Shown here piece after piece: positions 15,945-35,794 of a DNA stretch of 64,000 nt. Under the pieces are notes generated by a model that made no database searches, was not told the origin of the DNA, and was given only the letters and a program-made list of their open reading frames with translations. Position numbers and translations under genes: made by a program. The stretch's first letter is position 1; the number at the start of each line of letters is the position of its first letter. This DNA is from an uncultured Chlorobiaceae bacterium (GTDB lineage Bacteria; Bacteroidota; Chlorobiia; Chlorobiales; Chlorobiaceae), in NCBI GenBank assembly GCA_903824295.1, contig CAIJWE010000072.1, forward strand, positions 705-64,704, written 5' to 3'.

Positions 15945-17347
15945 TTAACCCTTCGGAGAAACCATTATCCATAGAAAAGGCTGTGTCAAGCCTTGCTGCG
16001 GCTTTACAGCTTTATCGTGACAGCCACGCCCTATCCCGCCGTGACCGTCCAGAGCTCGTAACGTTCCGTCAGCCTCTTCAACCGACAAAGCTCCCTGAAT
16101 GGCTTTGCTGTCAGCGGGTCTATCCACGACTCTTCTGGATGAACCGGGAGAAGGATTTTTCCGTGGCAGGTATCGGAGTTGCCGACACCATTGCGTTGCA
16201 CGAATCAGGCAGTAATGCGGCCAGCTTCGAGCAGTTCGAACGCTGCATCGCTGCCAAAAATCCCGATGCACGCTATTTCGGTGGTTTTTGTTTCAACAAC
16301 GAGGAAAAACAGGATCCGATCTGGCAGGAATTCTCCTCATTTTCCTTTATCCTTCCACTTGTCAAGTTAACGTTTGAGGAGGGCGCTTACACCCTCTCCT
16401 GCCACCTCTGGCTGGAAGTTGACGACGAGATAGCGGCAAAAATCAGCGCAATCACCGAAGTACTCGATCGCCTGGTCATCGACACTGATTGCTCTGCAAT
16501 GAAACTGCCTGAGCTGCAAAACATCTCCTATAATCCGGATGAGAACGAGTGGATGGAGCTGTGCCGAAAAGCGCTGCTCACCTTTGAGTCGGGCGAAATG
16601 CAAAAGATCATGCTTGCGCGCCAGACTACGCTTGAATTCAGCCACAGCTTTTCGCCGCTTCTTTTTCTGTTGCGCTACCCCTCTGCACAGAACCCCATCT
16701 ACAGGTTCTACTTTGAACCCGTCGAAAACCATGCCTTTTTCAGCTTTACCCCCGAACGGCTCTACCGCCGGGATGGCAGGATGCTGCTCACGGAAGCACT
16801 GGCAGGAACCTGTTCAAAGGAGTCCACCAACGGCTGTGACCATCTCGCGTCAGCAGTACTTTTGAATTCAGAAAAGGATATCCGCGAACACAACTTCGTC
16901 AAGGAGATGATCTCCCTTGAGCTGCTCAAGATATGCAGCACCATAGATATGGATAAAGAGGTACAGGTGCTGCAACTCAATCGCCTTGCACACCTCTACA
17001 CACGCTGCAGCGCCCAACTGAAACCAGAGTTTGAGCACGACGACAGCGCCGTCCTGCAACTCCTCCACCCCACTCCTGCGGTCGGCGGAGTACCCAAAGC
17101 TCCGGCCATGCAGCATATCATGGAGCTTGAACCCTTCAGCCGTGGCTGGTATGCAGCACCTGTAGGCTGGATAAGCCGGGATGCTGCCGAATTTGCCGTC
17201 GCCATCCGTTCCGCCCTTGTCAATGGCCGTTTTGCCTCTCTCTACTCCGGCGCCGGTCTCGTCAAAGGATCAAACCCCTTTGCCGAATGGGAAGAGGTTG
17301 ATCAGAAAATAGGAGAGCTGCTGGCCATAACCCGGCAGGAAGCATGA
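15941..17347 (+). CDS. menF: Isochorismate synthase
   Basis: Chorismate-binding C-terminus ('LHPTPAVGGVP','RGWYAAPVGW','GAGLV'). Overlaps the menD start. Confidence 0.85.
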   Translation: MINPSEKPLSIEKAVSSLAAALQLYRDSHALSRRDRPELVTFRQPLQPTKLPEWLCCQRVYPRLFWMNREKDFSVAGIGVADTIALHESGSNAASFEQFERCIAAKNPDARYFGGFCFNNEEKQDPIWQEFSSFSFILPLVKLTFEEGAYTLSCHLWLEVDDEIAAKISAITEVLDRLVIDTDCSAMKLPELQNISYNPDENEWMELCRKALLTFESGEMQKIMLARQTTLEFSHSFSPLLFLLRYPSAQNPIYRFYFEPVENHAFFSFTPERLYRRDGRMLLTEALAGTCSKESTNGCDHLASAVLLNSEKDIREHNFVKEMISLELLKICSTIDMDKEVQVLQLNRLAHLYTRCSAQLKPEFEHDDSAVLQLLHPTPAVGGVPKAPAMQHIMELEPFSRGWYAAPVGWISRDAAEFAVAIRSALVNGRFASLYSGAGLVKGSNPFAEWEEVDQKIGELLAITRQEA

Positions 17348-19095
17348 ACAACCGCCAGATCACCACACTGTGGAGCCAGATCATTGTTGAAGAGCTGATC
17401 CGTCAGGGTGCAGATTTTTTCTGCATCTCACCAGGCTCACGCTCAACACCCCTCACCATCGCCATTGCAAGAAACCCGAAAGCGCGATGGAAAATGTTTG
17501 CCGACGAACGCTCAGCAGCCTTTTTTGCACTCGGTTATGGACGCGCAACCGCCCTGCCAGCCGTGCTCGTCTGCACATCCGGCACCGCTGTCGCCAACTA
17601 TTTTCCAGCAGTGGTTGAGGCATCAATGGACTTTCAGCCGATGCTTGTGCTTTCAGCCGACCGTCCCTTCGAGCTGCTTGAATGCGGCGCAAACCAGACC
17701 ATTCGCCAGGAGAACATCTTCGGCGGTTACACCCGGTGGCAGATGCAGCTCCCCGTACCATCAACCGATACTCCCCTCAAAGCGCTGCTCTCTACCATCG
17801 CCTACGCTATAGCAACATCTCTCGGAGAGTCAGCAGGCCCGGTCCACCTGAATCAGCCCTTCCGGGAGCCTTTTGAACCGGAACAACCTGATCAACATGA
17901 TCTCTGGCTTGCTCCCCTCCAGGAGTGGCTTGAAAGCGGAAACCCATTCAGCAGTTCGATAGTACCCGAAAAACAGCCTGACGGCAACACCATCACCATG
18001 CTCCGCAAACTGCTTGCAGCGGCAAAGAGGCCGATGATCATTGCCGGCAGCATGACAAGCAGGGCGGACGCGTTGGCGGTCAATGCACTGTCGATCGACC
18101 TGAACATTCCGCTCTACGCCGATTTTTCATCCGGCCTGAGAATGGTGGCCTCTGCCGATCCCTGGCAGCTCCTGCTCCAGTCAACCGAAGTTCGAAAATC
18201 ATTCAAGTGTGACCTTGTTTTGCACTTTGGCGGCAACGTCATTGCAAAACACCCCGCAACCGCGCTGAAAGAGTGGCAACCGGAACACTACATTGTTGTC
18301 AAGCCGCAACCGACACGCTTTTCCCCCGACCACAACGTCACCTGCCGTCTTGAAGCATCCATTGCACAGACAGCAGGAATGCTGAAAGGGTGCCGCGCCA
18401 CTCCGCCACAACCCGACAGCAACCCCGTTGAGCGCTTTTTCAAAAGAGCATCCGAAGAGATGCAAACCGAACTGCGTCCCGACAAGCCGGTCACCGACAT
18501 CTCCGCTGCCCGACTCGTTTCAGAGCTGATCACCAGCCAACAGGTGCTTTTTGTGTCAAACAGCATGCCCGTCAGAGATATGGACAACTATGCCAACAGC
18601 AGCCATGAAGGAGGCATTCCAACCGCCATCAACCGAGGAGTAAGCGGCATTGACGGCATCATCTCCACCGCTGCCGGTTTTGCTACTGGACACTTGAAGC
18701 CCGCAACACTGATGATTGGCGACATTGCATTTCTGCACGACCTCAACGCCCTCTCGCTCCTCGGCTCACTCCCGGTACCCATGCAGATCATCGTTTTGAA
18801 CAACAATGGTGGCGCAATATTCTCGTTCCTTCCGGTCTCAGCATGCAGCGACGTCTTTGAAACCCACTTCGCCACCCCCCAGAACTACAGCATCCGCTCA
18901 GCCGCCGAAACCTTCGGGCTCGACTATGCCGCCCCGCACACCAACCGCGAATTCAGTGAGGTGTACCGCGCTGCGTGCAGCAGCAACCGGAGCATCATTA
19001 TTGAGGTAAAAAGTTCACGGGCGGAGAATGTACTCCAGCACCGCGCCCTGCGGGAACAAATCATGACGCTGGCGGAAGAGGAACTCTGTCATTAA
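17344..19095 (+). CDS. menD: SEPHCHC synthase (ThDP-dependent)
   Basis: 'CISPGSRSTPL','CTSGTAVANYFPAVVEA','GDIAFLHDLNAL' are MenD signatures. Confidence 0.9.
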   Translation: MNNRQITTLWSQIIVEELIRQGADFFCISPGSRSTPLTIAIARNPKARWKMFADERSAAFFALGYGRATALPAVLVCTSGTAVANYFPAVVEASMDFQPMLVLSADRPFELLECGANQTIRQENIFGGYTRWQMQLPVPSTDTPLKALLSTIAYAIATSLGESAGPVHLNQPFREPFEPEQPDQHDLWLAPLQEWLESGNPFSSSIVPEKQPDGNTITMLRKLLAAAKRPMIIAGSMTSRADALAVNALSIDLNIPLYADFSSGLRMVASADPWQLLLQSTEVRKSFKCDLVLHFGGNVIAKHPATALKEWQPEHYIVVKPQPTRFSPDHNVTCRLEASIAQTAGMLKGCRATPPQPDSNPVERFFKRASEEMQTELRPDKPVTDISAARLVSELITSQQVLFVSNSMPVRDMDNYANSSHEGGIPTAINRGVSGIDGIISTAAGFATGHLKPATLMIGDIAFLHDLNALSLLGSLPVPMQIIVLNNNGGAIFSFLPVSACSDVFETHFATPQNYSIRSAAETFGLDYAAPHTNREFSEVYRAACSSNRSIIIEVKSSRAENVLQHRALREQIMTLAEEELCH

Positions 19096-19208: not shown

Positions 19209-19961
19209 TTAATTCTTGATGCAGCGCACAGACATGCCATCAGCATTCTGTTCAGAGCCTTGAACAAAGGTTGGAAGGTGGTAAGAAAGAGCACCATACC
19301 ATGAGATTGTAGGAGTTACTTCAGAAGAAGTCCAGAAAAAAGCATTTTCACCCATAAAGAAAAAACCTCCATCGACGCCTCTCATGCCACCTGGCATTCC
19401 AGTGAATTTGCTGCTGTTATCGGCTGTAAAATTGGGCCTGCAGACCGATGAAAGTACATTGCCATTAGGAACACATACTGCGGGCTGGCCGCTGTTATCG
19501 GCTGTAAAAATGGGGCTGATCCAAAGTGTGGTGGATTTCATTTTTCCGCCAGCAACATAGACCCCGCCAAGTGCGTTTGAGAGTTTTTTGAACTCCTGAT
19601 TGTTCGGTATATGCCACCCTTTCGGAGCAAGACCGCGAGGATCGTGTACGGCATACCAGTTATAAAGGCGACCATATTTTCCGTTGCCGGCGGCATCATT
19701 TTTGTAGTAGCTCCATGCGCCTTTTCCACTTGCTGCGGCGTCAAGCCACTCCTGTGTCGTAGCGGCATGTTTAATCAGCTCTCCGTTGCGATAACGGCTG
19801 ACGTCAAGATTCTCCTGCATCCAGACCTGACCGCCTATGGTCACGGTATTGATAACGTGTCCGTCAATATCCGTCTCTGCCGCCCGGAGATCTGAAACCG
19901 AAGTCATAACGGTTATCAGGAGAAGAAGTAATCCGTAGAGTGCCTTATGTGAATAGTTCAT
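19209..19961 (-). CDS. Fibrobacter succinogenes major paralogous (FISUMP) domain protein
   Basis: Signal peptide; 'IGGQVWMQENL','GRLYNWYA','APKGWHIPNNQEFKKL' match the FISUMP pattern. Confidence 0.8.
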   Translation of the reverse strand: MNYSHKALYGLLLLLITVMTSVSDLRAAETDIDGHVINTVTIGGQVWMQENLDVSRYRNGELIKHAATTQEWLDAAASGKGAWSYYKNDAAGNGKYGRLYNWYAVHDPRGLAPKGWHIPNNQEFKKLSNALGGVYVAGGKMKSTTLWISPIFTADNSGQPAVCVPNGNVLSSVCRPNFTADNSSKFTGMPGGMRGVDGGFFFMGENAFFWTSSEVTPTISWYGALSYHLPTFVQGSEQNADGMSVRCIKN

Positions 19962-20576: not shown

Positions 20577-22046
20577 TTGTTTACCGTTGCTGAAAAAAAC
20601 CGCCTGAACGTATCAAAGCGTACCGATGCGAAAAAGAAATCGCAGTTAGGGCAATATCTTACCCCCGCAAAGACGGCATCGTTCATGGCAGGGCTCTTTC
20701 CTCGGTCAAGTGGTGAATGCCGCCTGCTGGATGCCGGAGCCGGGATAGGTTCGCTCTCAAGCGCATTTCTTGAACGATGCTCAAAGGGAGATCTGGACTT
20801 CCACTCAATCCGGTTAAAAGCCTATGAGATTGACGACGTCATTCACGAAGAACTTCGAAACTCCCTTTCACCGTACAGTGCCATACCCCGATTCTCTTAT
20901 GAAATCATCGGAGATGATTTTATTGAAGCAGCCGTAAATGCAATTCAATTCAGAGAGTATGACTTTACTCATGCCATTTTAAATCCACCATACAAGAAAA
21001 TTGGGAGTTACTCAAGAGAGCGCCTGCTTCTTCGCCAGGTTGACATCGAAACGGTCAATCTCTATTCAGCTTTTGTGGCACTCGCTATAGCCCTGGCCGC
21101 CCCGGGAGGTCAAATTGTCGCAATTATTCCGCGCAGCTTCTGCAACGGCCCCTACTATCGTCCGTTTCGTGACTTTCTGCTTCAGTATGCTGCCATCCGC
21201 CACATCCACCTCTTCGACTCTCGCAGCCAGGCCTTCCGCGATGATGCCGTCTTACAGGAGAACATTATCATTCGGCTTGAACGTGATGGCTGTGTTGGGC
21301 CGGTGAGGGTTTCAACCTCTACTGACGACACGTTCAATGACCTTGCAACCACAGAATATCCATTCGAAAGCATTCTCTGGCCTGATGATAGAGAGCGCTT
21401 TATCCACATACCAACGTCACAAGAGGACAACTCCACCAAATTCTCCCCGGCAATTTCCTTTCAGTTGAGTGATCTGGGCATACAGGTATCAACAGGGCCG
21501 GTTGTCGATTTTCGGCTGAAAGAGCATCTGCGTGCCATGCCTGAAGCCGATACCGTGCCTCTCCTCTACCCCGGCCATTTCAGTGGTATCAAAAGCCGAT
21601 GGCCTATAGCCGGTATGAAAAAACCGAATGCCATTGTGAGAAACCCTGATACCGAAAAGTGGCTCTACCAGAATGCCTTTTACTGTGTTGTTCGACGCTT
21701 TTCATCCAAGGAAGAAAAACGTCGCATCGTGGCAAGTGTGGTTGAACCCGGCACATTTGGAGACGCAGCCATGCTTGGCTTTGAGAACCACCTGAACCTC
21801 TTTCACGAAAACAAAAAAGGATTGCCGGAAGCATTGGCACGTGGGCTTGCGGTCTATCTCAACACCAGCGCGGTCGATGAGCATTTTCGAAGCTTTAACG
21901 GCCACACACAGGTCAATGCCACAGACCTCCGGCAAATCAGGTATCCAAGCCGTGATGCCCTGACAGCACTCGGGAAATGGGTCATGCGGCAGGATGAGCT
22001 TGAAGAATCAGAAATTGAAGCCAGGATAAAAGCCATGACCGCATGA
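20577..22046 (+). CDS. N6-adenine DNA methyltransferase (Eco57I/PstI-type, gamma class)
   Basis: 'LGQYLTPAKTASFM', motif I 'LLDAGAGIGSLS', motif IV 'ILNPPYKKIG'. TTG start. The stop overlaps the start of the next gene (ATGA 22043-22046). Confidence 0.85.
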   Translation: MFTVAEKNRLNVSKRTDAKKKSQLGQYLTPAKTASFMAGLFPRSSGECRLLDAGAGIGSLSSAFLERCSKGDLDFHSIRLKAYEIDDVIHEELRNSLSPYSAIPRFSYEIIGDDFIEAAVNAIQFREYDFTHAILNPPYKKIGSYSRERLLLRQVDIETVNLYSAFVALAIALAAPGGQIVAIIPRSFCNGPYYRPFRDFLLQYAAIRHIHLFDSRSQAFRDDAVLQENIIIRLERDGCVGPVRVSTSTDDTFNDLATTEYPFESILWPDDRERFIHIPTSQEDNSTKFSPAISFQLSDLGIQVSTGPVVDFRLKEHLRAMPEADTVPLLYPGHFSGIKSRWPIAGMKKPNAIVRNPDTEKWLYQNAFYCVVRRFSSKEEKRRIVASVVEPGTFGDAAMLGFENHLNLFHENKKGLPEALARGLAVYLNTSAVDEHFRSFNGHTQVNATDLRQIRYPSRDALTALGKWVMRQDELEESEIEARIKAMTA

Positions 22047-23026
22047 AACGAAAAAAACAATATATCAAGGAGGCTCTTCAGGTTATCGCTTCACTTGGCT
22101 TGCCACGAGAACAGCATAACGAACGTTCTGCTCTTTGCCTTCTGGCTCTTCTTGGAATGACTCCAGGCAAGGAGTGGAGTGATGCTGAAAACCCGCTTAT
22201 GGGTATTACGCCTGTCATGGATTGGGTTCGTGAACACTATCGCAAGGAGTATGCCCCAAACACACGCGAAACATTCCGGCGGCAGACAATGCACCAGTTC
22301 TGCGACGCAGGTATCACGCGGTATAACCCCGACAAACCTGATCGTGCAGTTAACAGCCCCAAAGCGGTCTATCAAATCGAGTCCTCCACTCTGGCGCTGC
22401 TCCGCACCTTTGCCTCCAACACCTGGCATGAAGCACTGACAGCCTACCTCTCAGAAAGGGAGACGCTTATCGCCCGTTATGCAAACGAGCGTGAGCAGAA
22501 CCGCATTCCGGTTGAAATTGCTCCGGGAAAAAAAGTCACCCTGAGCCCCGGTGAGCACAGCCAACTGATCAAGTCCATTATCGAGAATTTTGCCTCTCGA
22601 TTTGCTCCCGGAAGTGTGCTGGTCTATGCTGGTGACACCGGTGACAAATGGAGTTATTTCGACGCTCCCCTGCTGTCAAGGTTGGGTGTAGATGTGGATG
22701 CTCATGGAAAGATGCCCGATGTCGTTCTGCATTACGCCGAAAAGAACTGGTTGTTGCTTGTTGAAGCAGTAACAAGTCACGGGCCCGTCAATGGAAAGCG
22801 GCACGACGAGCTTGCAAAGCTCTTCGAAGGGTCAAGCGCTGGACTGGTTTATGTGACAGCCTTTCCTGACCGGGCACTCATGAGTCGTTATCTTGGGGAT
22901 ATTGCATGGGAAACCGAGGTCTGGGTTGCTGACTCCCCCTCTCATCTCATACATTTCAATGGGCATCGCTTTCTTGGGCCGTATAGTGAGCCTGTTGATG
23001 TCAAGAAGATTGAACCTTTAGACTGA
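22043..23026 (+). CDS. BsuBI/PstI-family type II restriction endonuclease
   Basis: 327 aa (R.PstI is ~326 aa). 'PDVVLHYAEKNWLLLVEAVTSHGPVNGKRHDEL' matches the BsuBI/PstI catalytic region as I remember it. Coupled to the methyltransferase. Confidence 0.8.
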   Translation: MKRKKQYIKEALQVIASLGLPREQHNERSALCLLALLGMTPGKEWSDAENPLMGITPVMDWVREHYRKEYAPNTRETFRRQTMHQFCDAGITRYNPDKPDRAVNSPKAVYQIESSTLALLRTFASNTWHEALTAYLSERETLIARYANEREQNRIPVEIAPGKKVTLSPGEHSQLIKSIIENFASRFAPGSVLVYAGDTGDKWSYFDAPLLSRLGVDVDAHGKMPDVVLHYAEKNWLLLVEAVTSHGPVNGKRHDELAKLFEGSSAGLVYVTAFPDRALMSRYLGDIAWETEVWVADSPSHLIHFNGHRFLGPYSEPVDVKKIEPLD

Positions 23027-23036
23027 TTTTTGGCCA

Positions 23037-23369
23037 ATGTGGAACATGAACGACATTGTGCGTATCGCCTGCAAAGAGGGGTATGTTTACCATATCATCT
23101 TTGATAACGGCATCAGTGGCGACGTTGATTTTTCCGAATATCTTTCAAAGGGCCCTGTTTTTGAGCCGTTGAGAGAGTTAGCTTTTTTCCGGAAAGCATC
23201 AATTGAGGGTGGAACCATATCATGGCCAAATGGTGCAGACATTGCGCCCGAAACGCTCTACGACAAAATCCTGCAAGCTCAAAGCGATATCAATCCCGAG
23301 TGCCTTCATTCACAACCTGCAGATCATTTTCGAGAAGAAGTACAATCTCCCCTTTCGCTTCAGGGATAA
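23037..23369 (+). CDS. DUF2442 domain protein
   Basis: 'YHIIFDNGISGDVDFSEYL..GPVFEPLR...FFRKASIEGGTISWPNGADIAPETLY' is the DUF2442 pattern. Confidence 0.7.
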   Translation: MWNMNDIVRIACKEGYVYHIIFDNGISGDVDFSEYLSKGPVFEPLRELAFFRKASIEGGTISWPNGADIAPETLYDKILQAQSDINPECLHSQPADHFREEVQSPLSLQG

Positions 23370-23384
23370 AACGGGTGGCGAATT

Positions 23385-26120
23385 TCACTGCCTCTTATTT
23401 TTTTCTTTGAGGAGCATCTTTTGAAGATGCTCAACAACCGCCTGAGCATCACTATACTCTCCGGTGCTGCGGGCACGCTCACGCGATGCAAGCCCTCGGG
23501 CAATGAACTCCGATGTGTCTGCAAGAATGGTACGAATAGCTTCGGTCAGTTTATCGGAGGTATCTTGTTCTGACTCAGTCAAGTCAAGCAGAAATGCGGT
23601 GGCTTCGGGATTGATACGGCCATAGGTCAGAGTTTCTGCAAAATGACCTTCCTGAAGGGCGCGGAAGAGTGCACGGGCAAAAAAGAACTCAAGAAAGCTT
23701 CGGTGCGAAAAGCGGTAATAGCCGTCAGTACTCCGCACAAGGAAAGAGGCTGTACGCAGTTCAAGGTCAACCCGCTCACTGTCGAGGCTGCGGGCAAGTC
23801 CACCTTCATGATGCAGCAGCACGGCGAGATCGGTGTAGTGAATCTGGTTGCGTGGCCTGCTCCAAAGCTCACAGGCCATGCGCTCAAGCAGGTCGCGCAT
23901 GTGATCGACATTTACCTCCCCTTGGCTCAGAAGAATGGCGTTCAACCAGCGGGTAGTGTAGGTCAGGTAGAGTGACCCGGTGGTCACTTTCTCTCCCTGT
24001 TTTATCAGATCGGGAAGAGAAGCTACAATCATATCAAGCAACTGGGGTGTTGAAGCGATATCCTGAAAGCCATATCTCTCTTCGATAAACTGCCGCGCCT
24101 GATCACCCTCAACAATGCCGAGGCGCTTTTGCAAGTACTCGGCAATCTGCTCATTTGTGAAGACGGGCAAAGTATCGAGCGTAGCATCGAAAGCACGTGC
24201 AGCCTTGCCCAGAGCTGAATCTGCTTCGAAGAGCTTGTCACTACCCTCAACTGCTTGCCGAGCACTGCTGTTGTCGCGGAAGAAGTGGCTGCGAGAGGTG
24301 ATGAGTACCCGGTTGGCACGTGGGTTACGACCGGAATTTGCTGTTGGACGCACCAGTTGGCGGAACTGCTCTTCAACACTGCGTCCGGCCTGAGCTACGC
24401 CCATTTCATCAAAACTGTCGAGCAGGAGTACCAAGCGCCCGGCTTCAAGCAAGTGCAGCACGATCTCTGGATTGAGCACGGTGCGCAGTTCGGTTTCGAG
24501 ATGCTCGCGAATCAGGCTTTCAATCGAAATGGCATTGGGAAACTGGCGCAGATTGATTTCGACCGGAATCGGGCTTTCGGGATTATTTTCGCAGTTACGG
24601 GCAAGTTCGTAGGCAAGACGCTCAACCAGCGTGCTTTTACCGGTACCATAATCGCCGAGCACCAGCCACAATCGACTTCCCGCTCCTGAAACCCACTGGA
24701 GCGCATGAGGCAACATCGGCACCGGTTTTTCGTCGGGCTGCTTTTCAAGAATCAGATATTGATCGACATAGTTACCTGCAAGTGCACTTGCTTCGTAGCG
24801 CTGACGGATGCGGGCAAGGTAGGGTGAAAAATCGAAGAGACTGCGCTCAAGTTCATCGTAGGTGAGGGCCAATATCCCTGCATTTTTTGAGGTTTTGCGG
24901 GCTGCGGGGGTGAAATCGTGTGAAGCAATAATCATACCTTTTGCCTGCATTACTCTGGCATCAGGGTCATCAAGCCAGGTTCTGAATTTCGTAACAGTTC
25001 CCTCTGGAGTGACGGCCTGATGATCCTTACACTCTACAAGATAAACCTCCTCTCTTCCGAAATCGCTTCTTTTCCGGGCAACCAGGTCTATCCTGTGCGA
25101 ATCGATCAACTGTTCCCGTTCAACGGTATAACCAAGCAGACGCAGAAGGTGGGCAACTCGCTCTTCGAATCTTTTACCTTGTGCATTGCTCTCCTTGTTA
25201 CGGCGGGTTATCAGGTCGGGACGGGTATCGTCGCTACGACGGGCCGTCTCGCTCTCAGCGATAACCTGCTGGCGCACTTTGTCGATTCGGCGTTCCAGAT
25301 CGTTATAGGCTTTGGCTACCGGAGTTTCCGGGCGTGTTGCTGCGTAAAGTTCTTCGGTGAAGAGCATACGCTGATCAAAAGGGATGGTGTCCAGCTCAGA
25401 GTGTGTCAGACCAAAGGACTCTTTCCAAATCTCTTGGCCTTGGGCACGCAAATCTGAAATATCCGGAATCGGTGAAGCAACCAGCAAGCGGGTAAGGGGC
25501 GGCAGCGTACCCCGTGCGGCAATTCGCCCCTCGCAGGCTGATTGGAGGGCTTGCCAGACGTGGGCAAGTCCTTTGGTATTTTGCCTGCCGTAGTTGCCGA
25601 CAAGAACGGTGGCGTGTGGCAGCAGGGCGGCAAGCAGACCGCCAATGTCGGTGATACCAGTACGAGAGTCGAGCAACACTGTTTCGAAACCTGCTTTACC
25701 GAAGGCATCAAGGATACCGCGAAAAAGCCCAAGACCGCTGTCGAGATCACGAACCAGAAAATCGTCCCAACGGATGCTCTGGAAAAGCCCGGCAAAATCT
25801 TTGTTATCGCCATAGGCGGGCAAGATGAAGAGGCGATCCTGTTCCGGCGTCTGGCAAGCGAGTTTGACAAGTTTGCCGAAATCAGCTTTGTTCGATGCTT
25901 TTCCAGACTCCTGCCATGCAATCATCCATTCAAAAAAACCCTCTTTGACCGGTTTTGATGGTGTCAACCCCGGGATATTGTGCAACCCAGGCGCTTCGAT
26001 ATCAAGATCCCACAGCAGCGTCTTGCCGCGCCGGGCGCAAAGAACACCGATATTGGCGGCAAGCAGGCTGCGCCCGACTCCGCCCTTGAAGCTGTAGAAG
26101 GTTACGATGAAGGGAGTCAT
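23385..26120 (-). CDS. Fusion protein: ParA/MinD-like ATPase (variant KGGVGR P-loop) + Mrr-like restriction endonuclease + NACHT/STAND NTPase
   Basis: aa 1-290: 'FYSFKGGVGRS', 'LWDLD', 'VLLDSRTG'. aa ~315-430: 'GKRFEERVAHLLRLLGYTV..RIDLVA..VYLVECKD' (PD-(D/E)xK). aa ~480-870: Walker A 'GDYGTGKST' (nt ~24634-24657), Walker B 'LVLLLDSFDEM', 'RVLITSRSHFF', and a winged helix 'YRFSHRSFLEFFFA'. Confidence 0.8.
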   Translation of the reverse strand: MTPFIVTFYSFKGGVGRSLLAANIGVLCARRGKTLLWDLDIEAPGLHNIPGLTPSKPVKEGFFEWMIAWQESGKASNKADFGKLVKLACQTPEQDRLFILPAYGDNKDFAGLFQSIRWDDFLVRDLDSGLGLFRGILDAFGKAGFETVLLDSRTGITDIGGLLAALLPHATVLVGNYGRQNTKGLAHVWQALQSACEGRIAARGTLPPLTRLLVASPIPDISDLRAQGQEIWKESFGLTHSELDTIPFDQRMLFTEELYAATRPETPVAKAYNDLERRIDKVRQQVIAESETARRSDDTRPDLITRRNKESNAQGKRFEERVAHLLRLLGYTVEREQLIDSHRIDLVARKRSDFGREEVYLVECKDHQAVTPEGTVTKFRTWLDDPDARVMQAKGMIIASHDFTPAARKTSKNAGILALTYDELERSLFDFSPYLARIRQRYEASALAGNYVDQYLILEKQPDEKPVPMLPHALQWVSGAGSRLWLVLGDYGTGKSTLVERLAYELARNCENNPESPIPVEINLRQFPNAISIESLIREHLETELRTVLNPEIVLHLLEAGRLVLLLDSFDEMGVAQAGRSVEEQFRQLVRPTANSGRNPRANRVLITSRSHFFRDNSSARQAVEGSDKLFEADSALGKAARAFDATLDTLPVFTNEQIAEYLQKRLGIVEGDQARQFIEERYGFQDIASTPQLLDMIVASLPDLIKQGEKVTTGSLYLTYTTRWLNAILLSQGEVNVDHMRDLLERMACELWSRPRNQIHYTDLAVLLHHEGGLARSLDSERVDLELRTASFLVRSTDGYYRFSHRSFLEFFFARALFRALQEGHFAETLTYGRINPEATAFLLDLTESEQDTSDKLTEAIRTILADTSEFIARGLASRERARSTGEYSDAQAVVEHLQKMLLKEKNKRQ

Positions 26121-26779
26121 GCGGCATCGTTCATGTTTCGAATTTTCAAGTGCGATTGAATCGTGGCGTCTGTTGAGAATAACCCTCGAAAACCTGTCAC
26201 GGGTGCAGCCGTCTTTGGCGCTGCGCTTGTAGCGTGCTTCCTCCCGTTCTCAGTGAGTTGCAAAAGAATATCACGGCCATGTTTCCGCTTGGTTACCAAG
26301 CCGCTTGATTCGAGATTCCCGATAAGCTGAGTGACTCGCCCCGCACTGACTCCAAGTTTTTTAATAAGATCCAGTTGGGGGAGTTCACGATTTCCTGTTT
26401 CGAGAAGCAATTGCAGGATTTCCGGAACATGACGGCGTTTCAGTTGTGTCTCAGGATCGGCATGGGCAAGATTGAGTCGCCTCGCTTCGAGCATATCACT
26501 CGCCTCCTGCCATCGGTATATGAACTCTTCAGGAAGCGATGCTGGCGAATTTGCACCGTTAAGAGTTCGATGAATAAGACGTTGCATTTCAGATATACCT
26601 TCGCGATCGTTGAGTCGAGCAATTGCATCCATTGACCAGACGGTAATCAACAGATTGGCCATATCCAGAGCCTGTTCATCCCATTTTTCAAGTGTCCGAA
26701 TGGCTTCAAAGAGTTCGGATGGTGTAGAGCGATCGACAAACAGTATAGGATCGCTGGCATGAAGATCGAGTGTGCTCAT
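26117..26779 (-). CDS. Winged-helix (MarR-like) DNA-binding protein, N-terminal domain unknown
   Basis: The C-terminus 'LDLIKKLGVSAGRVTQLIGNLESSGLVTKRKHGRDILLQLTENG' is wHTH-like. The stop overlaps the start of the 911-aa gene (ATGA). Confidence 0.6.
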   Translation of the reverse strand: MSTLDLHASDPILFVDRSTPSELFEAIRTLEKWDEQALDMANLLITVWSMDAIARLNDREGISEMQRLIHRTLNGANSPASLPEEFIYRWQEASDMLEARRLNLAHADPETQLKRRHVPEILQLLLETGNRELPQLDLIKKLGVSAGRVTQLIGNLESSGLVTKRKHGRDILLQLTENGRKHATSAAPKTAAPVTGFRGLFSTDATIQSHLKIRNMNDAA

Positions 26780-26863
26780 GAGAGTATTTCTAAATTATCC
26801 TAAACCTTTTTAGTTAGAATTAATTTAACATTATTTAGCTATTAAAAAATTCCTGCCTGCATA

Positions 26864-28150
26864 TCAACTCAAGTCAACCAGCGTAAAATAGTCGAATTCA
26901 TCCCTGGTTACAGAGACGATAACCAGATCTTCTTTACACTCAACAAATTTCTGGTGCTGCACAAACCCGCGCACTGGAGTTGAACCAGCAGGCATTTCCT
27001 GATTGGCGACAGCCACAATTGTTCCGAGCGTATCGTGCATTGTTTTTGCTGTCGCCTTATGTGGATTAAGTTTATCGGTCATGCTCGGAACAAGCAGCCA
27101 GTCAAGCGGCAGAGAAGCCAACACCATGGCAGGTTCGCCTTCAAAAAAATCTTTGCAGATCGCCATGGCCATCAGTCCGAGTGATGTAAACAAGCAGGTA
27201 AAATGATTCGGAGCACATTCTATACCCTCCTTTCGCTTGTTAAAGGTAACCGATTTGCGCTTATCGCAGCCAAACAGGAGTGTGCCGTCCAGCCCAAGCA
27301 TAGCCTCAGCATGATTTCGCCACCCTTTTTCGACCTGCTCATGGAAGCTTCCGAGAACAATGAGAGGAACCGAGAGGGAATGCTTTTCACCATTTTTTCT
27401 GTGCAATTGCTGAAACTCTGAAACGATTCGGGATCTGATATCGGGAGTGATTGTAAGCTCTGGCATCACAAGGATGTGAGCGTTTCGTTTTTTTTCTTCA
27501 CTGATATGGTGCAGCGCCGATGCAAAACGCGTTTCAGTGTCACTGATCTCTTTGCAGATGAAGTGCGAGGGCTTCTTGTCAGAAACATTCGGCCTCACTC
27601 CGTCATCAAAATGAACGACGGCAATTCTGATCGTTGTTGCAGAAAAATGATTTGCAAGCCAATCATGGTAGCCCCTCGGTATTCCAACCACATTGACAGG
27701 AATCTTTTGAGGGTTATTGTGCGGTACCACTCTGTAATGCTTCAACCAATAGGCAATATTGCCAAATTGCAAGCGCTTTCCACCCCCGCACGATTCAGAT
27801 TTTTGATAAATTGGCAGCATCCAGACCTGATCTTCACCATCATCAATACGTAAATTCCGTAAATAACCATACGATTTCGGGTTAATACGAACGCAAAAAT
27901 CGTCAAGAGCCCTAAGCCAAAGCAACGGATCATTGTTGACCTCTTCGGACGTAATCGTTGATTCTTTATTGTCGATGCTTTCGATGCGATCTATGGCATC
28001 CATGAGCATCAATTCATCCTTTTCATGCTGGTTTTCCCAATCGTCAAGAACCCGGCGACCATCAATAGTTGGCGAACCCGCAAGTCGGCACAGACGGGCA
28101 AGAGCCTGGCGGTAACTTTTGGCATTGATAAATTCAGCTACCTTTTCCAT
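26864..28150 (-). CDS. Two-domain protein: unknown N-terminal domain + nitrilase-superfamily (CN-hydrolase)-like domain
   Basis: aa ~173-428 follow the CN-hydrolase layout: 'IRIAVVHFD', 'AHILVMPE(231)L', 'LFGCDK(297)RK', 'GLMAMAIC(332)KDFFE', 'DWLLVPS'. I recognise no motif in aa 1-170. Confidence 0.6.
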   Translation of the reverse strand: MEKVAEFINAKSYRQALARLCRLAGSPTIDGRRVLDDWENQHEKDELMLMDAIDRIESIDNKESTITSEEVNNDPLLWLRALDDFCVRINPKSYGYLRNLRIDDGEDQVWMLPIYQKSESCGGGKRLQFGNIAYWLKHYRVVPHNNPQKIPVNVVGIPRGYHDWLANHFSATTIRIAVVHFDDGVRPNVSDKKPSHFICKEISDTETRFASALHHISEEKKRNAHILVMPELTITPDIRSRIVSEFQQLHRKNGEKHSLSVPLIVLGSFHEQVEKGWRNHAEAMLGLDGTLLFGCDKRKSVTFNKRKEGIECAPNHFTCLFTSLGLMAMAICKDFFEGEPAMVLASLPLDWLLVPSMTDKLNPHKATAKTMHDTLGTIVAVANQEMPAGSTPVRGFVQHQKFVECKEDLVIVSVTRDEFDYFTLVDLS

Positions 28151-28396
28151 ACTTGAGCTTCACCTGTTGTTCTGGCAGAGCCGGAAAATAGTAACGTCAT
28201 TCCGGCGTTGATTGCACAACCAATCCAGATGATTGCGACAGAAGAGTATCTGCTCAGGTTACAAAGTTTTTTCTTGCTTAACAACCATCATTTTCACTCG
28301 CAAATCATTTTCTGCACATCGATAAGGTTTCTATATTAATCCGGAATCGTTCCTGATGACCACCCTAAACAAGCATAACAATCTGTCAATAATAGT

Positions 28397-29221
28397 ATGC
28401 CCACAACAACCAGTTCCAATAGTGAGACCCCACTCAACACTGAAAGCGTAAAGGATTCTTCCCTGCCCCGCATCATCTTTTTGCACGGCTTTCTGGGCTC
28501 GGGGAGCGACTGGGCTCCAATGGCCCGGCAGCTTGAAAATGATTATTGCTGCATTCTGGTTGACTTGCCTGGGCACGGAGAGAGCGATATAGAAGCAAAC
28601 GGCAACCCTGACCTCTTTTTTACCGAAACTGTCGATGCGCTTGCGGAAGAACTGAGCCGCTCGGCAACTCCCGAACCCTGCTTTCTTGTCGGCTATTCGA
28701 TGGGCGGGCGTATCGCGCTCTCCCTGCTGCTGCGCCACCCGGAACTCTTTGCCAAAGCGATTATTGTCTCTGCCTCCCCCGGCCTCAGAACCGAAGAGGA
28801 GCGCCTCAACCGACGGGAAAGCGACGAAGGTATTGCACGAAAAATTGAAAAAAACTTTGAGGGATTCATTGATGCGTGGTATGAGCAGCCACTCTTTGCC
28901 ACACTCAAAAGTCACCCGATATTCAAAGAGGTTGAGGGTGAACGAAAAATCAATAATCCTGAAAATCTTGCCCTTGCTCTCAGGTTGCTCGGCACGGGTC
29001 GGCAGCCCTCTGCGTGGGATGAACTGCAAAAAAACAGGGTGCCGATACAATTTTTTGCAGGGGAAAAAGACCTGAAATTCGTTGAGATTGGGCGTCAAAT
29101 GGTTAATTTATGCACTGAATCAACGCTTGAGATTTTTCCCGGCTGCGGTCACACGCTGCACATTGAAAACCGGGAGCTGTTTCTTGACCGCCTGACACAA
29201 TTTTTCAACAAGCATCAATAA
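28397..29221 (+). CDS. menH: SHCHC synthase (alpha/beta hydrolase)
   Basis: 'FLHGFLGS', nucleophile elbow 'GYSMGGR', and its position immediately upstream of menB. Confidence 0.8.
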
Positions 29222-33112: not shown

Positions 33113-33143
33113 ATCTTTCAGAGAAAATTTTATTCATGATGGG

Positions 33144-33668
33144 TTATTCAGTTTTTTTGTTCAATGATTCAAAAAACATTTTTCGCAAATTTTTATTGGG
33201 ACGAATATTTTGCGTTCCGCCATTTGTGGTATGAACTTGAATTTGCATTGTTGCGATATCTAACGGAGATTTGATGAAGTCTTTACAAAGGCCATTGATC
33301 CATGAGAATTTTTCATCCAAAGGAATACACCAATGACCTTGATCACCATCATTCAGTAACATTGGAATTTTATCTGAATAATTGTCTCGGTCAACAGGAA
33401 TGATTCCATAACGTCTTCTAAACAGGCCAATACGGATACCAATGTTATTAATTACAGTTCCACGGCTACCAATATTTGTGATATCTATAGACACAAGATT
33501 TTGCTTAAGCATTCCGCCGCCTAACCTAACCGTATATCCGCAATATCCTCTAAGTCTGACCCTTTGTGAGATTTTGGCTATATATAAAGCCACAATAGCC
33601 GCAGAAAGCGAACCAATACCGGAGACCCAATCGGCAACTGAGCCCCAATTGATAGTTGAGACATCCAT
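33144..33668 (-). CDS. Hypothetical protein, N-terminal TM helix
   Basis: 174-aa ORF in a visibly AT-richer stretch. TM segment 'WVSGIGSLSAAIVALYIA'. No recognisable family. Confidence 0.45.
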   Translation of the reverse strand: MDVSTINWGSVADWVSGIGSLSAAIVALYIAKISQRVRLRGYCGYTVRLGGGMLKQNLVSIDITNIGSRGTVINNIGIRIGLFRRRYGIIPVDRDNYSDKIPMLLNDGDQGHWCIPLDEKFSWINGLCKDFIKSPLDIATMQIQVHTTNGGTQNIRPNKNLRKMFFESLNKKTE

Positions 33669-33727
33669 ACAAATAACACAGTAAAAGAAAACCTATCACA
33701 TTGAAATAATATGCGGCATCCTGATCT

Positions 33728-34048
33728 CTAACTTGCCATCCAACCAATAATCCGCCCATGTCCCCACTGTATAAAAATCGAAAATACAACCAATAAAATC
33801 ACCGTGATGACTGCCTTACGAACTCCAGCGGCTCTCGATACTGTTGTAGCTTCGCTTGCATAAATACTCGGAGTTTCCTTGATTGCAGCCCACCAAAGAA
33901 AACCAGGTATAAGCAAAGAAAAAGGCCAAATGAAAAGTACGAGCACATATCCCGCCCATCCCCAAACGTCTTTCATTACTTTTACATAGGCAAGGGTCTG
34001 AATACCGCCTAAAAAGAATGCTCCGACAGTACCAAAGATGAGAAACAA
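33728..34048 (-). CDS. Hypothetical small membrane protein
   Basis: 106 aa with three hydrophobic, Trp-rich segments. No recognisable family. Confidence 0.4.
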   Translation of the reverse strand: MFLIFGTVGAFFLGGIQTLAYVKVMKDVWGWAGYVLVLFIWPFSLLIPGFLWWAAIKETPSIYASEATTVSRAAGVRKAVITVILLVVFSIFIQWGHGRIIGWMAS

Positions 34049-34156
34049 AAAAACAGGTATCGTGATTATAGATGCTGAACCTCAGGTAAACCACTAAGAA
34101 AGTGTTCTTGGATTTGTGTCAGTAGAAGCAATCATGGCGGAATAACACTGATAATT

Positions 34157-34300
34157 TTAGAAATCAATTGAGAGGCACACTTCTATCGCTTCAGATAAAT
34201 GAGACAACACCTCCTCATAGCTTTCGCCTTGAGTGGCGCACCCTGAAATAGCGGGGACTTATGCCCAATATCCACCCTCTTCAGCTTCATGAACAATCAC
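34157..34300 (-). pseudogene. HicB-like antitoxin relic with in-frame TAA
   Basis: Own translation: VIVHEAEEGGYWA*VPAISGCATQGESYEEVLSHLSEAIEVCLSIDF*. This matches the HicB/UPF0150 pattern 'EGGYxAxVPxxPGCxTQGxTxEE'. No ATG, and no hicA partner. Confidence 0.5.
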
Positions 34301-34321
34301 TTTCAGTTTTATGGGGTTAAG

Positions 34322-34540
34322 TCAGGCTTGCTTTTTCACCTTTTGCTGAGCCCGAATTTCAGCAAGAACATCGTCCAATGAGAGATGGTCGAAAAGTGCC
34401 GCTCGCTCCTCAGTATAATTTCCCGTGCCTGTAGAAAATTGACCAATAAAACGCATGGTGTCAGCAGAACCAATTTCTCTGGTAAGTACCCGGAGCGCCT
34501 GATTGGTTACTTCAGTTAAAGACTTTGCTGGAATATTCAT
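34322..34540 (-). CDS. Putative antitoxin partner of the upstream PIN protein
   Basis: 72-aa ORF overlapping the PIN gene stop by 4 nt. I could not assign a family. Confidence 0.45.
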   Translation of the reverse strand: MNIPAKSLTEVTNQALRVLTREIGSADTMRFIGQFSTGTGNYTEERAALFDHLSLDDVLAEIRAQQKVKKQA

Positions 34541-34977
34541 GGTTCGATTACCTCAATAAGTTCCAAAGGAGAAACAACCTTTGTTTGTTCTGTTTCAACT
34601 TGTTTTGCTCGCCGAAAAAAACGGTCATCACACGTGCAAAAATAAGTTGCATGAGCTTCTACCACACAAGCAAGATGCAAGGCATCCAATACATTAATCC
34701 CATTATGGACGTAGCCTTGAGCGCGTCGCTCTACCGAATCCCCAGCCTGAATAACCTGGCTACTTTTCAATAACGTTTGTAAAACAAAAGCTTTTCTTGC
34801 GGGATAAGGATTGTGATCAACTTCGTAACCCAATGCCACGGAATTGAGTAATTCGGCACTCCCTGATTCACACCAAGTAAGTATACCAAGTATAGCCTCA
34901 GCTTCCAAGTGAATGCGCAAATGTGTTTGATCGTCCATTGGACGCTGTAAACAGCACATGTCCAAATAAATTCGCAT
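34537..34977 (-). CDS. PIN-domain nuclease (VapC-like toxin)
   Basis: Acidic PIN residues in the expected order: 'IYLDM', 'EAEA', 'LDALHLA', 'CTCDDRF'. Confidence 0.65.
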   Translation of the reverse strand: MRIYLDMCCLQRPMDDQTHLRIHLEAEAILGILTWCESGSAELLNSVALGYEVDHNPYPARKAFVLQTLLKSSQVIQAGDSVERRAQGYVHNGINVLDALHLACVVEAHATYFCTCDDRFFRRAKQVETEQTKVVSPLELIEVIEP

Positions 34978-35044
34978 ACAAGTTGTTTACTTTACCAAGT
35001 CCAGTGATGTCCGAAAAAAAAAATCAAGTCATCAAAAGTCGATA

Positions 35045-35794
35045 TTACCCAGCAAACTTTTCATTCAAAAAATCATCCATCGTATAAAATCCCGGCGCAG
35101 TTTTGTGGCGCAGGGCGAGCCAGTTAGCCGCTTCAACGGCACCAGAGGCAAATCCGGAGCGGTTTTTGGCCGTGTGGGAGACCACAATTTCATCAGCTTC
35201 GGAATCAATGAAGGCGGAGTGCTTCCCGAACACAGAACCAAGGCGCAAAGAGGCCACCTGCAGCTCATCCGGCGCAAGCTTTTTATCATCGAAGAGTTGG
35301 CGCACAATACTCTTTTTCCGGCTGTTGGCCGCAAGAATCAGGTCAGCCGCCCGCAAAGCCGTACCGCTGGGAAAATCGGCCTTGGCGGTATGATGCTGTT
35401 CAGCAAAGGCAATATCGAACTGGCCGAAGGGTGCGATAAGGCGTGCAGCTTCACGCACTGTGCGCAAAAAGATGTTGACGCCGAGCGAAAAATTTGCCGA
35501 ATAAAGCAATGAGCTGCCGGCATCGGAGAGCATCGCTTTGACCTCCTGCTGCCGGTCATCCCAGCCGGTGGTACCCACAACAACGGGCACGCCCGATGCG
35601 AGCATGGCGGGGAGGTTGGCCAAAAATGCCTCTCTGACGGTAAAATCTATGATGGCATCGCTTCCCTGAAAAAGGTCAGGAGTGATGGCTGTATTGATAT
35701 CGAGCACGGCCGCCGTCTCGTGGCAGCCCGACCGGGCAATGACCAGAGCCACCTGCTGGCCCATTTTTCCGTTTCCAACAAGGGTAAACCTCAT
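35045..35794 (-). CDS. dapB: 4-hydroxy-tetrahydrodipicolinate reductase
   Basis: 'LVGNGKMGQ' NAD(P) fold; 'VVGTTGW','[15 protein letters not shown]' DapB signature. Confidence 0.9.

Follow-up and report, generated by a model that had tools for sequence, protein, structure and literature searches.

A widespread operon of amidase, winged-helix and KGGVGR/NACHT genes, apparently a multi-gene variant of NLR-like conflict systems, and its sensor-less copy in a Chlorobiaceae bacterium

Three co-directional genes lying in a block that interrupts the men genes of an uncultured Chlorobiaceae bacterium raise the question of whether they form a conflict system that has escaped description and, if so, how such a system would work. 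The window in which they occur is a 64,000-nucleotide stretch of contig CAIJWE010000072.1 (assembly GCA_903824295.1). The genes, called g1, g2 and g3 below, are predicted to encode a nitrilase-family amidase, a small winged helix-turn-helix (wHTH) protein and a large protein in which a MinD/ParA-like domain of the KGGVGR variant is followed by an Mrr-type nuclease and a NACHT NTPase. An earlier note, made from the DNA letters of the window, had proposed them as a candidate undescribed defence operon. We find that the operon is real, widespread and apparently undescribed, a multi-gene variant of the nucleotide-binding leucine-rich repeat (NLR)-like conflict systems. More specifically, we hold with moderate confidence that the trio belongs to a widespread three-gene NLR-like system of the signal transduction ATPases with numerous domains (STAND)/NACHT type, and that this particular copy is without its sensor.

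Conservation and anatomy of the operon

The neighbourhood is the strongest part of the case. A scan anchored on g1, with one genome per GTDB species and gene order read with home-made hidden Markov models (HMMs), returned 37 loci. Wherever the contig is long enough, g1 is followed on the same strand by g2 and then by a KGGVGR protein, the exception being L010, where g3 is deleted. The loci span Chlorobi, Rhodocyclales (Betaproteobacteria), Magnetococcales and Myxococcota; they come from Chlorobiaceae, Zoogloea, Accumulibacter, Sulfuritalea and Magnetococcales and, within the Myxococcota, from Archangium, Pyxidicoccus, Hyalangium and Kofleriaceae. The earlier note had named beforehand the lack of a conserved neighbourhood in other genomes as a ground for refutation; the gene order is kept across several phyla. 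In 26 of the 33 GTDB loci, again across phyla, the stop of g2 overlaps the start of g3 as [AG]TGA in the g3 frame, and most related loci have a spacer of 48-114 nucleotides (nt) between g1 and g2.

Scans anchored on the third gene lead to the same neighbours. Homologues of g3 at 31% identity likewise have a CN_hydrolase gene and a small wHTH gene upstream, and in a KGGVGR-anchored scan of metagenomes g2 was found at 13 of 13 loci with at least 35% identity, and g1 at all 11 with enough upstream sequence. The broader idea that g1 and g2 accompany every KGGVGR protein was rejected, since both are missing from about 60 of the 80 metagenome loci, which carry a separate KGGVGR family of about 550-650 amino acids (aa); one KGGVGR clade only is coupled to amidase and wHTH genes. 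The separate family is abundant (L062-L128) and shares 27-32% identity with the N-terminus of g3. The distribution of the trio is patchy across several phyla, as is typical of conflict systems, and one Chlorobaculum metagenome-assembled genome (MAG) holds two paralogous loci (L015 and L017).

The domain calls made from the DNA (modules in Table 1) are borne out by profile searches and structure models, with one correction. For g3, the Pfam profiles CbiA, Mrr_cat and NACHT each score above their cut-offs. Its N-terminus, previously read as a ParA/MinD-like ATPase, is indeed MinD/ParA-like, but its P-loop is not the canonical one: it reads KGGVGRS rather than KGGxGK[ST], with the lysine changed to arginine in 97 of 97 aligned homologues. 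Because this lysine is replaced by R17, the domain is filed under the KGGVGR-motif variant AAA ATPases of NCBIfam (NF047398; 113 bits, cut-off 90) and not under KGGxGK[ST] MinD/ParA. The motifs K12GGVGR17[ST], D38xDxEAPG and D151(S/A)RTG are conserved or near-invariant among 101 g3 homologues. The closest solved structure is that of MinD (4v03), with an alignment only around the P-loop.

The two other modules of g3 were called correctly. The Mrr-type PD-(D/E)xK nuclease, a restriction endonuclease (REase) domain, scores 55 bits with Mrr_cat (cut-off 21) and 20.9 with the profile of the inactive type, NA-iREase1 (cut-off 27). The E, D and ExK residues are present in the window protein and retained in about 80-88% of its homologues, so that, judged by its motifs, the nuclease domain looks catalytically intact. 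The NACHT module reaches 44.8 bits in Pfam (cut-off 26.7), its Walker A and B motifs are near-invariant, and Walker B fits D[GAS]hDE, the NACHT signature as quoted in Kibby et al.

The assignment of g1 needed more than a single-sequence search. The Pfam CN_hydrolase profile (PF00795) stays below threshold on the g1 sequence alone (14 bits, cut-off 23.2, E=0.032), but a profile of 38 g1 sequences reaches Nit2, the NAD-synthetase glutaminase and NitFhit in the PDB (best value 2.6e-7); g1 is therefore a divergent member of the nitrilase superfamily. The AlphaFold2 model (predicted local distance difference test [pLDDT] 92) matches MtCPA, Nit2 and a Nesterenkonia amidase at E~1e-11 in a Foldseek search of the PDB (MtCPA 5h8j, 3.5e-11; Nit2 2w1v; amidase 3hkx, template modelling [TM] score 0.67), and on this model the alpha-beta-beta-alpha sandwich fold of the superfamily can be predicted confidently. 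P230-E231, K297, E308 and C332-x-D334 are invariant in the 38 homologues and align with the PE, hrK and C.D motifs of Nit2. Thus the nitrilase-like domain proposed from the DNA holds, as do E231, K297 and C332 as its candidate residues, to which E308 is now added. The N-terminal domain of about 170 residues had been called unknown, and the profile search gave no significant match to it either, only RPN8/MPN at E~0.25. In a phmmer search of 1.84 billion representatives, the g1 family forms 404 clusters at 50% identity, nearly all of 400-450 aa and aligned over both domains. The ratio of nonsynonymous to synonymous substitution rates (dN/dS) of g1 is 0.11-0.13.

For g2, the call of a MarR-like wHTH stands as to the wHTH, with MarR one candidate family beside ArsR/HlyU. 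HTH_24 passes its cut-off (30.8 against 21.9 bits), whereas MarR_2 (26.6 against 27) and MarR (21.7 against 24.6) fall short. In the structure model (pLDDT 81), the wHTH resembles ArsR/HlyU and MarR equally and weakly (target-normalised TM ~0.7, Foldseek E~3e-3); a fold search with the N-terminal domain gave no match, and the C-terminal tail past the wHTH is disordered. The gene is intact in every related locus examined.

The truncated allele and the decay of the locus

Most g3 relatives are 1,100-1,900 aa long and carry pentapeptide and WD40 repeats at the C-terminus, the sensor-bearing homologues ranging from 1,100 to 1,950 aa. In the window, protein homology to these long forms stops at aa ~866-874 and DNA homology to the long-form Chlorobium loci at nt 23517-23522. 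The last 44 residues are unrelated to the long-form relatives, and tblastn searches of the window with the C-terminal parts of long homologues detected no remnant of the pentapeptide and WD40 repeats. By these alignments, the window allele of g3 has lost the C-terminus, and with it the sensor, of a 1,100-1,900-aa protein. Since it ends at the boundary between NACHT and sensor, sensing through WD40 repeats is impossible for it.

The same junction, followed by the convergent DUF2442 gene, recurs in L003, L047 and L048, loci of other samples that are 88-91% identical to the window in nucleotide sequence. The truncated allele is kept in at least four related contigs from different samples, with no frameshift, and stands together with intact g1 and g2 in at least three further contigs from other samples. 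Over 866 codons, the truncated g3 genes of the window and L003 give a dN/dS of 0.079 at a synonymous divergence (dS) of 0.18, which argues that the sensor-less allele is old and maintained rather than a fresh lesion. The truncated allele is under purifying selection.

These figures bear on whether the window holds a decaying relic in which loss of the sensor inactivated the system and the shortened operon is on its way to pseudogenes. Such an account would fit the position of the cut, exactly at the NACHT/sensor boundary and beside the rearranged DUF2442 and restriction-modification (R-M) cassette, as well as the sister loci seen at every stage of decay (L003, L005, L051 and L010). Yet the three open reading frames (ORFs) of the window are intact, the selection on the shared allele runs the other way, and a short-form g3 clade of about 850 aa, devoid of repeats, exists naturally in Kofleriaceae-like loci. 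We regard the relic account as rather unlikely.

In the short-form clade (L043/L039), the REase residues of g3 are degenerate. At L043:9960-13676, and about the same in L039, three co-directional genes that overlap one another (349, 455 and 433 aa) lie downstream of the short g3. They have no significant Pfam match and may supply the missing g3 functions in trans. At the other extreme of length, a Chlorobium g3 homologue of 1,922 aa (L009:9981-15749) shows a second, weak match to the NACHT profile at aa 1145-1501, beyond the first module on its C-terminal side.

Losses elsewhere in the family fall on g1 and g3. L003 has lost the amidase gene altogether; in L005/L018/L049 and L058 the gene is in fragments, and in L016/L051 and L042 it carries frameshifts. 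Besides the break at aa 867 in the window lineage, g3 ends at ~660 aa in P0019-22, is fragmented in L051 and, in L005, is divided into separate ORFs for NACHT and WD40. Repeated g1 loss, repeated g3 truncation and variable sensor length are features typical of conflict systems.

Divergence along the operon is mosaic. Between the window and L003, dS is 0.18 for g3 and 1.45 for g2; against other Chlorobium loci it exceeds 2 for g1 and is 0.5-0.9 for g3. This suggests either recombination breakpoints inside the operon or a quicker turnover of g1 and g2.

The menD-menH gap

An ORF check reproduced the three genes exactly as first read, in coordinates and strand, together with the 84-nt AT-rich spacer between g1 and g2 and the ATGA at 26117-26120 (Table 1). 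The trio was also rightly placed beside a type II R-M pair, in a block with menD on one side and menH/B/C/E on the other.

Table 1. Features of the operon, its modules and its surroundings (window positions; aa, residue numbers of the respective protein)
Feature	Position	Strand	Remarks
g1	26864..28150	minus	428 aa; ORF 28150->26864
g1, N-terminal alpha/beta domain	aa 1-~170; nt 27641-28150	minus	family-specific
g1, nitrilase-superfamily (CN-hydrolase) domain	aa ~173-415	minus	E231, K297, E308, C332 intact
g1-g2 spacer	26780..26863	minus	84 nt, AT-rich
g2	26117..26779	minus	220 aa; ORF 26779->26117
g2, N-terminal helical domain	aa 1-115	minus	conserved, no match
g2, winged HTH	aa ~118-185; nt 26225-26428	minus	HTH_24 at aa 120-163
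ATGA, g2 stop and g3 start	26117..26120	minus	overlap
g3	23385..26120	minus	911 aa; ORF 26120->23385
g3, KGGVGR-variant MinD/ParA ATPase domain	aa 1-290; 25251..26120	minus	K12 kept, P-loop Lys -> R17
g3, Mrr-type PD-(D/E)xK nuclease	aa 300-432; 24825..25223	minus	E319, D345, E363, K365
g3, NACHT NTPase and C-terminal helical region	aa 440-867; 23520..24803	minus	Walker A G492-T-G-K495-S, Walker B D568-S-F-D571-E572
g3, 44-residue tail and stop codon	aa 868-911; 23385..23519	minus	in place of pentapeptide + WD40
menD	17344-19095		one flank of the block
Fib_succ_major-domain protein	19209-19961	minus	250 aa; between menD and R-M pair
Eco57I-like type II methyltransferase	20577-22046	plus	PADLOC MTase_II 6.5e-198
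PstI/BsuBI REase	22043-23026	plus	PADLOC REase_II 3.4e-155
DUF2442 gene	23037..23369	plus	E=1e-16; convergent with g3, 15 nt past g3 stop
menH/B/C/E	28397 onward		other flank of the block

The closest protein matches of g1, g2 and g3 are in Chlorobium and Chlorobiaceae MAGs, and megablast of the 16-kb region found no match in E. coli genomes. Across Chlorobium species, at 70-80% nucleotide identity, the trio occupies the same gap between menD and menH. Around it the gap is a variable hotspot: the R-M pair (20577..23026) lies on the opposite side of the trio in L004 and is absent from L005, and DUF4160/DUF2442 and NACHT-FGS genes come and go. The R-M pair is thus a neighbour of the trio, not a member. 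The DUF2442 gene adjoins the g3 truncation junction, an arrangement repeated in L047 and L048. The Fib_succ_major protein has neither a PADLOC match nor a counterpart in the other menD-menH loci examined.

In close relatives, the gap also contains a gene for a DUF4062-NACHT-FGE-sulfatase protein beside the type II R-M pair. Compared with L047 and L048, the window is without the 3.9-kb segment that encodes it between the DUF2442 gene and the R-M pair. The protein is 1,050 aa long (L047:15166-19063, corresponding to 23000/23001 of the window), and the loss in the window is clean, with the junction inside the final ~26 nt of the PstI-like REase gene.

Control elements were sought around the operon. 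A promoter and terminator scan of 23000-28500 found sites no commoner than in shuffled sequence, and it does not cover Chlorobi promoters; a search for inverted repeats in the g1-g2 spacer was negative. An inverted repeat of 21 nt, imperfect (71% complementarity) and with a 13-nt loop, lies at 28166-28220, 15-70 nt 5' of the g1 start. It is not taken as an operator because only the closest loci (L003 and L006) retain it, and L007, L033 and L005 do not. A AAGAAAAAACTTTGTAACCT-like block (consensus AGAAAGAACTTCGTAAACT) still further upstream is conserved in a wider set of Chlorobium loci.

Elsewhere in the window, a low-GC (0.40-0.42) segment of ~1.9 kb (33134-35054) is missing from the otherwise collinear relative L047. 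It holds a PIN-domain ORF (34537-34977, minus), which overlaps the preceding ORF by 4 nt, and then a 72-aa ORF (34322-34540), together looking like a VapBC-like toxin-antitoxin pair, and two further ORFs with no Pfam match.

Known relatives, proposed mechanism and meaning

Comparison with catalogued systems gives the operon relatives rather than a name. The PADLOC-DB v2 HMMs, run on the window proteins and on full-length g3 homologues, returned domain-level matches only: the KGGVGR domain matched PDC-M28B, and the REase matched PDC-S02 and ZorD. The PDC-M28B match is partial (profile positions 131-354 of 438), and no gene matches the M28A component of that system. The same database gave no match for g1, although one distant g1 homologue matches RT_UG5-nitrilase at 6e-7, and none of its Avs or bNACHT system models recognised g3, whether in the window or in full-length relatives. 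Full-text searches in an incomplete literature collection found no paper on an amidase-wHTH-KGGVGR/NACHT operon, in keeping with the earlier note's proposal that the trio is undescribed. The g3 domain fusion, however, has precedents: Kibby et al. (Table S1) already give NACHT clade 11 the layout 'X + (i)REase + NACHT + pentapeptide + WD40', and NF047398 is a catalogued KGGVGR family.

By the architecture strings of Table S1, clade 11 of the bacterial NACHT (bNACHT) proteins is the nearest relative, alongside the Mrr-NACHT protein bNACHT25. Full-length g3 relatives share the pentapeptide and WD40 sensor and the extra module at the extreme N-terminus. They differ in that this module, the 'X', is KGGVGR MinD/ParA-like and not a caspase, TIR or PNPase domain, in that the REase is apparently catalytically intact rather than inactive, and in that two upstream genes are linked to g3 except in rare decayed loci; the window protein differs further by having no sensor. 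According to Kibby et al., the bNACHT genes tested were seldom in operons, and those operons were poorly conserved. The only CN_hydrolase entry found in their architecture table belongs to a DrHyd-NACHT-HEAT protein of Methanosarcina, which carries the domain fused at its C-terminus. This is a precedent for joining a CN_hydrolase to a NACHT protein, and on its account we rejected the possibility that the 'CN-hydrolase' of their Figure 2 is the present operon.

Four other groups share parts of the design. Avs/AVAST systems have the STAND NTPase switch, the N-terminal nuclease effector and the C-terminal repeat sensor, whereas the g3 NTPase is of the NACHT clade, its sensor is made of WD40 rather than TPR-like repeats, the operon has three genes, and no PADLOC Avs model fits it. 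With the KGGVGR family NF047398, the N-terminus of g3 shares the invariant lysine-to-arginine change; the KGGVGR proteins of metagenomes differ in that most are shorter and stand apart from g1 and g2. DRT1, UG5 and DRT11 likewise have a nitrilase-superfamily domain whose catalytic tetrad is intact and whose setting is one of defence, candidate or proven; in DRT1 and DRT11 such domains are abortive-infection effectors. The trio locus, however, has no reverse transcriptase, and g1 stands alone with an N-terminal domain of its own. As in ParA-ParB and MinD-MinE, a deviant-Walker-A domain is paired with a small DNA-binding HTH protein, whose gene lies immediately before it and is coupled to it in translation. 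Here, though, the genes stand in a different order, the ATPase domain forms one protein with a nuclease and a NACHT module, arginine replaces the P-loop lysine, and g2 has no ParB homology.

From these relatives a mechanism can be sketched. The anatomy, conservation, motif integrity, truncation and selection are established, whereas we infer each step of the mechanism and the role in defence. By analogy with Apaf-1 and bacterial NACHT proteins, full-length g3 would act as a switch: the C-terminal pentapeptide and WD40 repeats would bind the trigger, the NACHT module would then swap its nucleotide and oligomerise, and the N-terminal Mrr-type nucleases, clustered and activated in this way, would cut DNA. 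The KGGVGR domains would be clustered too; they are probably not fast ATPases but nucleotide-dependent modules that dimerise or serve as adaptors. Because the translational coupling of g2 and g3 is conserved, g2 is probably the partner of the KGGVGR domain, possibly a stoichiometric one comparable to ParB or MinE. It may act as a DNA-bound regulator or inhibitor and probably regulates the operon or restrains g3. The amidase g1 would add a second effector, an enzyme like the nitrilase of DRT1.

The window copy calls for a variant of this scheme. In Apaf-1 and NLRC4, removal of the sensor tends to de-repress the switch. With this in mind, and given the intact g2, the sensor-less allele may be restrained by g2 or may work without a sensor. 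The trio of the window could thus represent a sensor-independent action that depends on g1 and g2, or a retained partial system.

Several points weigh against reading the trio as an NLR-like conflict system. A role in defence is suggested by architecture, distribution and analogy, the roles given to g1, g2 and the KGGVGR domain are analogies, and the core of the model requires a sensor that the window copy does not have. Kaur et al. 2020 describe inactive MinD/ParA-like domains in related conflict systems, which the N-terminus of g3 resembles; the other nucleotide-binding motifs are conserved in the KGGVGR clade of the trio, and this speaks against decay of the domain. The third gene of six Magnetococcales loci encodes KGGVGR and tetratricopeptide repeats (TPR) without a nuclease or NACHT module, and distant alphaproteobacterial g1-g2 pairs are found without any KGGVGR gene on Sphingobium and Methylobacterium megaplasmids, annotated as hypothetical in Sphingobium and lying in a stretch without annotation in Methylobacterium. 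The NLR part is therefore not obligatory. The fixed Chlorobium site looks vertically inherited rather than mobile; searches turned up no link to phages or PHROG families, and neither an integrase nor a tRNA lies nearby. A mobile-element origin of the locus was rejected accordingly, with no tRNA, no PHROG for g1 or g2 and no phage record containing g1.

The pairs that occur alone invite a toxin-antitoxin interpretation, in which the amidase is the toxin, the wHTH protein its antitoxin or repressor, and the KGGVGR/NACHT protein an accessory regulator that releases the toxin. Indeed, g1 and g2 form the tightest pair, persisting without the third gene on the megaplasmids and in L010; g2 is undisrupted in all loci examined while g1 is repeatedly lost, and nitrilase domains are toxic effectors in DRT1. 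The translational coupling, however, joins g2 to g3 and not g1 to g2, classical type II pairs do not look like these proteins of 428 and 220 aa, each with an extra domain of its own, and a toxic g1 is a postulate of this interpretation. We consider this interpretation quite improbable.

The genomic flanks also count against a defence role outside Chlorobium. At the ~10 non-Chlorobium loci checked they are unrelated to defence and mostly housekeeping, with genes for SpoVR, a class II aminoacyl-tRNA synthetase-domain protein, a pyrophosphatase, a kinase/PP2C protein, a methyl-accepting chemotaxis protein and ABC exporters. The guilt by association invoked when the operon was first proposed thus holds in Chlorobium, through the R-M pair and the NACHT gene, and fails in the flanks checked in other phyla; it is a local argument and does not amount to enrichment in defence islands.

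Such flanks would suit a signal-transduction or regulatory module of the MalT/AfsR type, in which the STAND NTPase and the MarR-like wHTH protein sense a cue and control the amidase while the REase serves as a DNA-binding or structural module. So would the syntenic, long-lived Chlorobium locus, the purifying selection on all three genes, the resemblance of g2 to ligand-responsive ArsR/MarR repressors and the loss of REase catalytic residues in ~12-20% of homologues, inactive REases (iREases) being common beside NACHT modules in Table S1 of Kibby et al. Against it stand the intact REase residues of most members, the window g3 included; the patchy occurrence across phyla, with g1 and sensor repeatedly pseudogenised, paralogous copies in one genome and sensors of greatly varying length; and the phage protection afforded by architecturally similar bNACHT proteins, among which the Mrr-NACHT protein bNACHT25 is experimentally hyperactivatable. 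A regulatory module is, in our estimate, unlikely.

Within the conflict-system reading, which we continue to prefer, a more daring proposal can be put forward tentatively. Together, amidase, wHTH protein and pseudo-ParA (KGGVGR) domain may be a new three-part control-and-effector module that plugs into varied sensor scaffolds, mostly NACHT with WD40 repeats and, in some Magnetococcales, TPR alone. A ParA-like dimerisation switch with a DNA-binding partner would then gate a nitrilase-family effector alongside the nuclease, and the window allele would be a 'decapitated' NLR held in check by g2.

To our knowledge, the NLR-like proteins of bacteria have until now been regarded as systems of essentially one gene. 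If the conflict-system reading is true, the two nearly always linked partner genes show that bacterial NLR signalling can be multi-component, and they offer a tractable handle on accessory proteins that gate a STAND switch. The trio would be a second, independent setting for nitrilase-family effectors besides DRT1, and the widespread KGGVGR "pseudo-ParA" domain would gain a defined genetic partner. The decay series in Chlorobium, in which the sensor is lost, the amidase is lost and the wHTH gene is never disrupted in the loci examined, would amount to a natural mutagenesis of the system.

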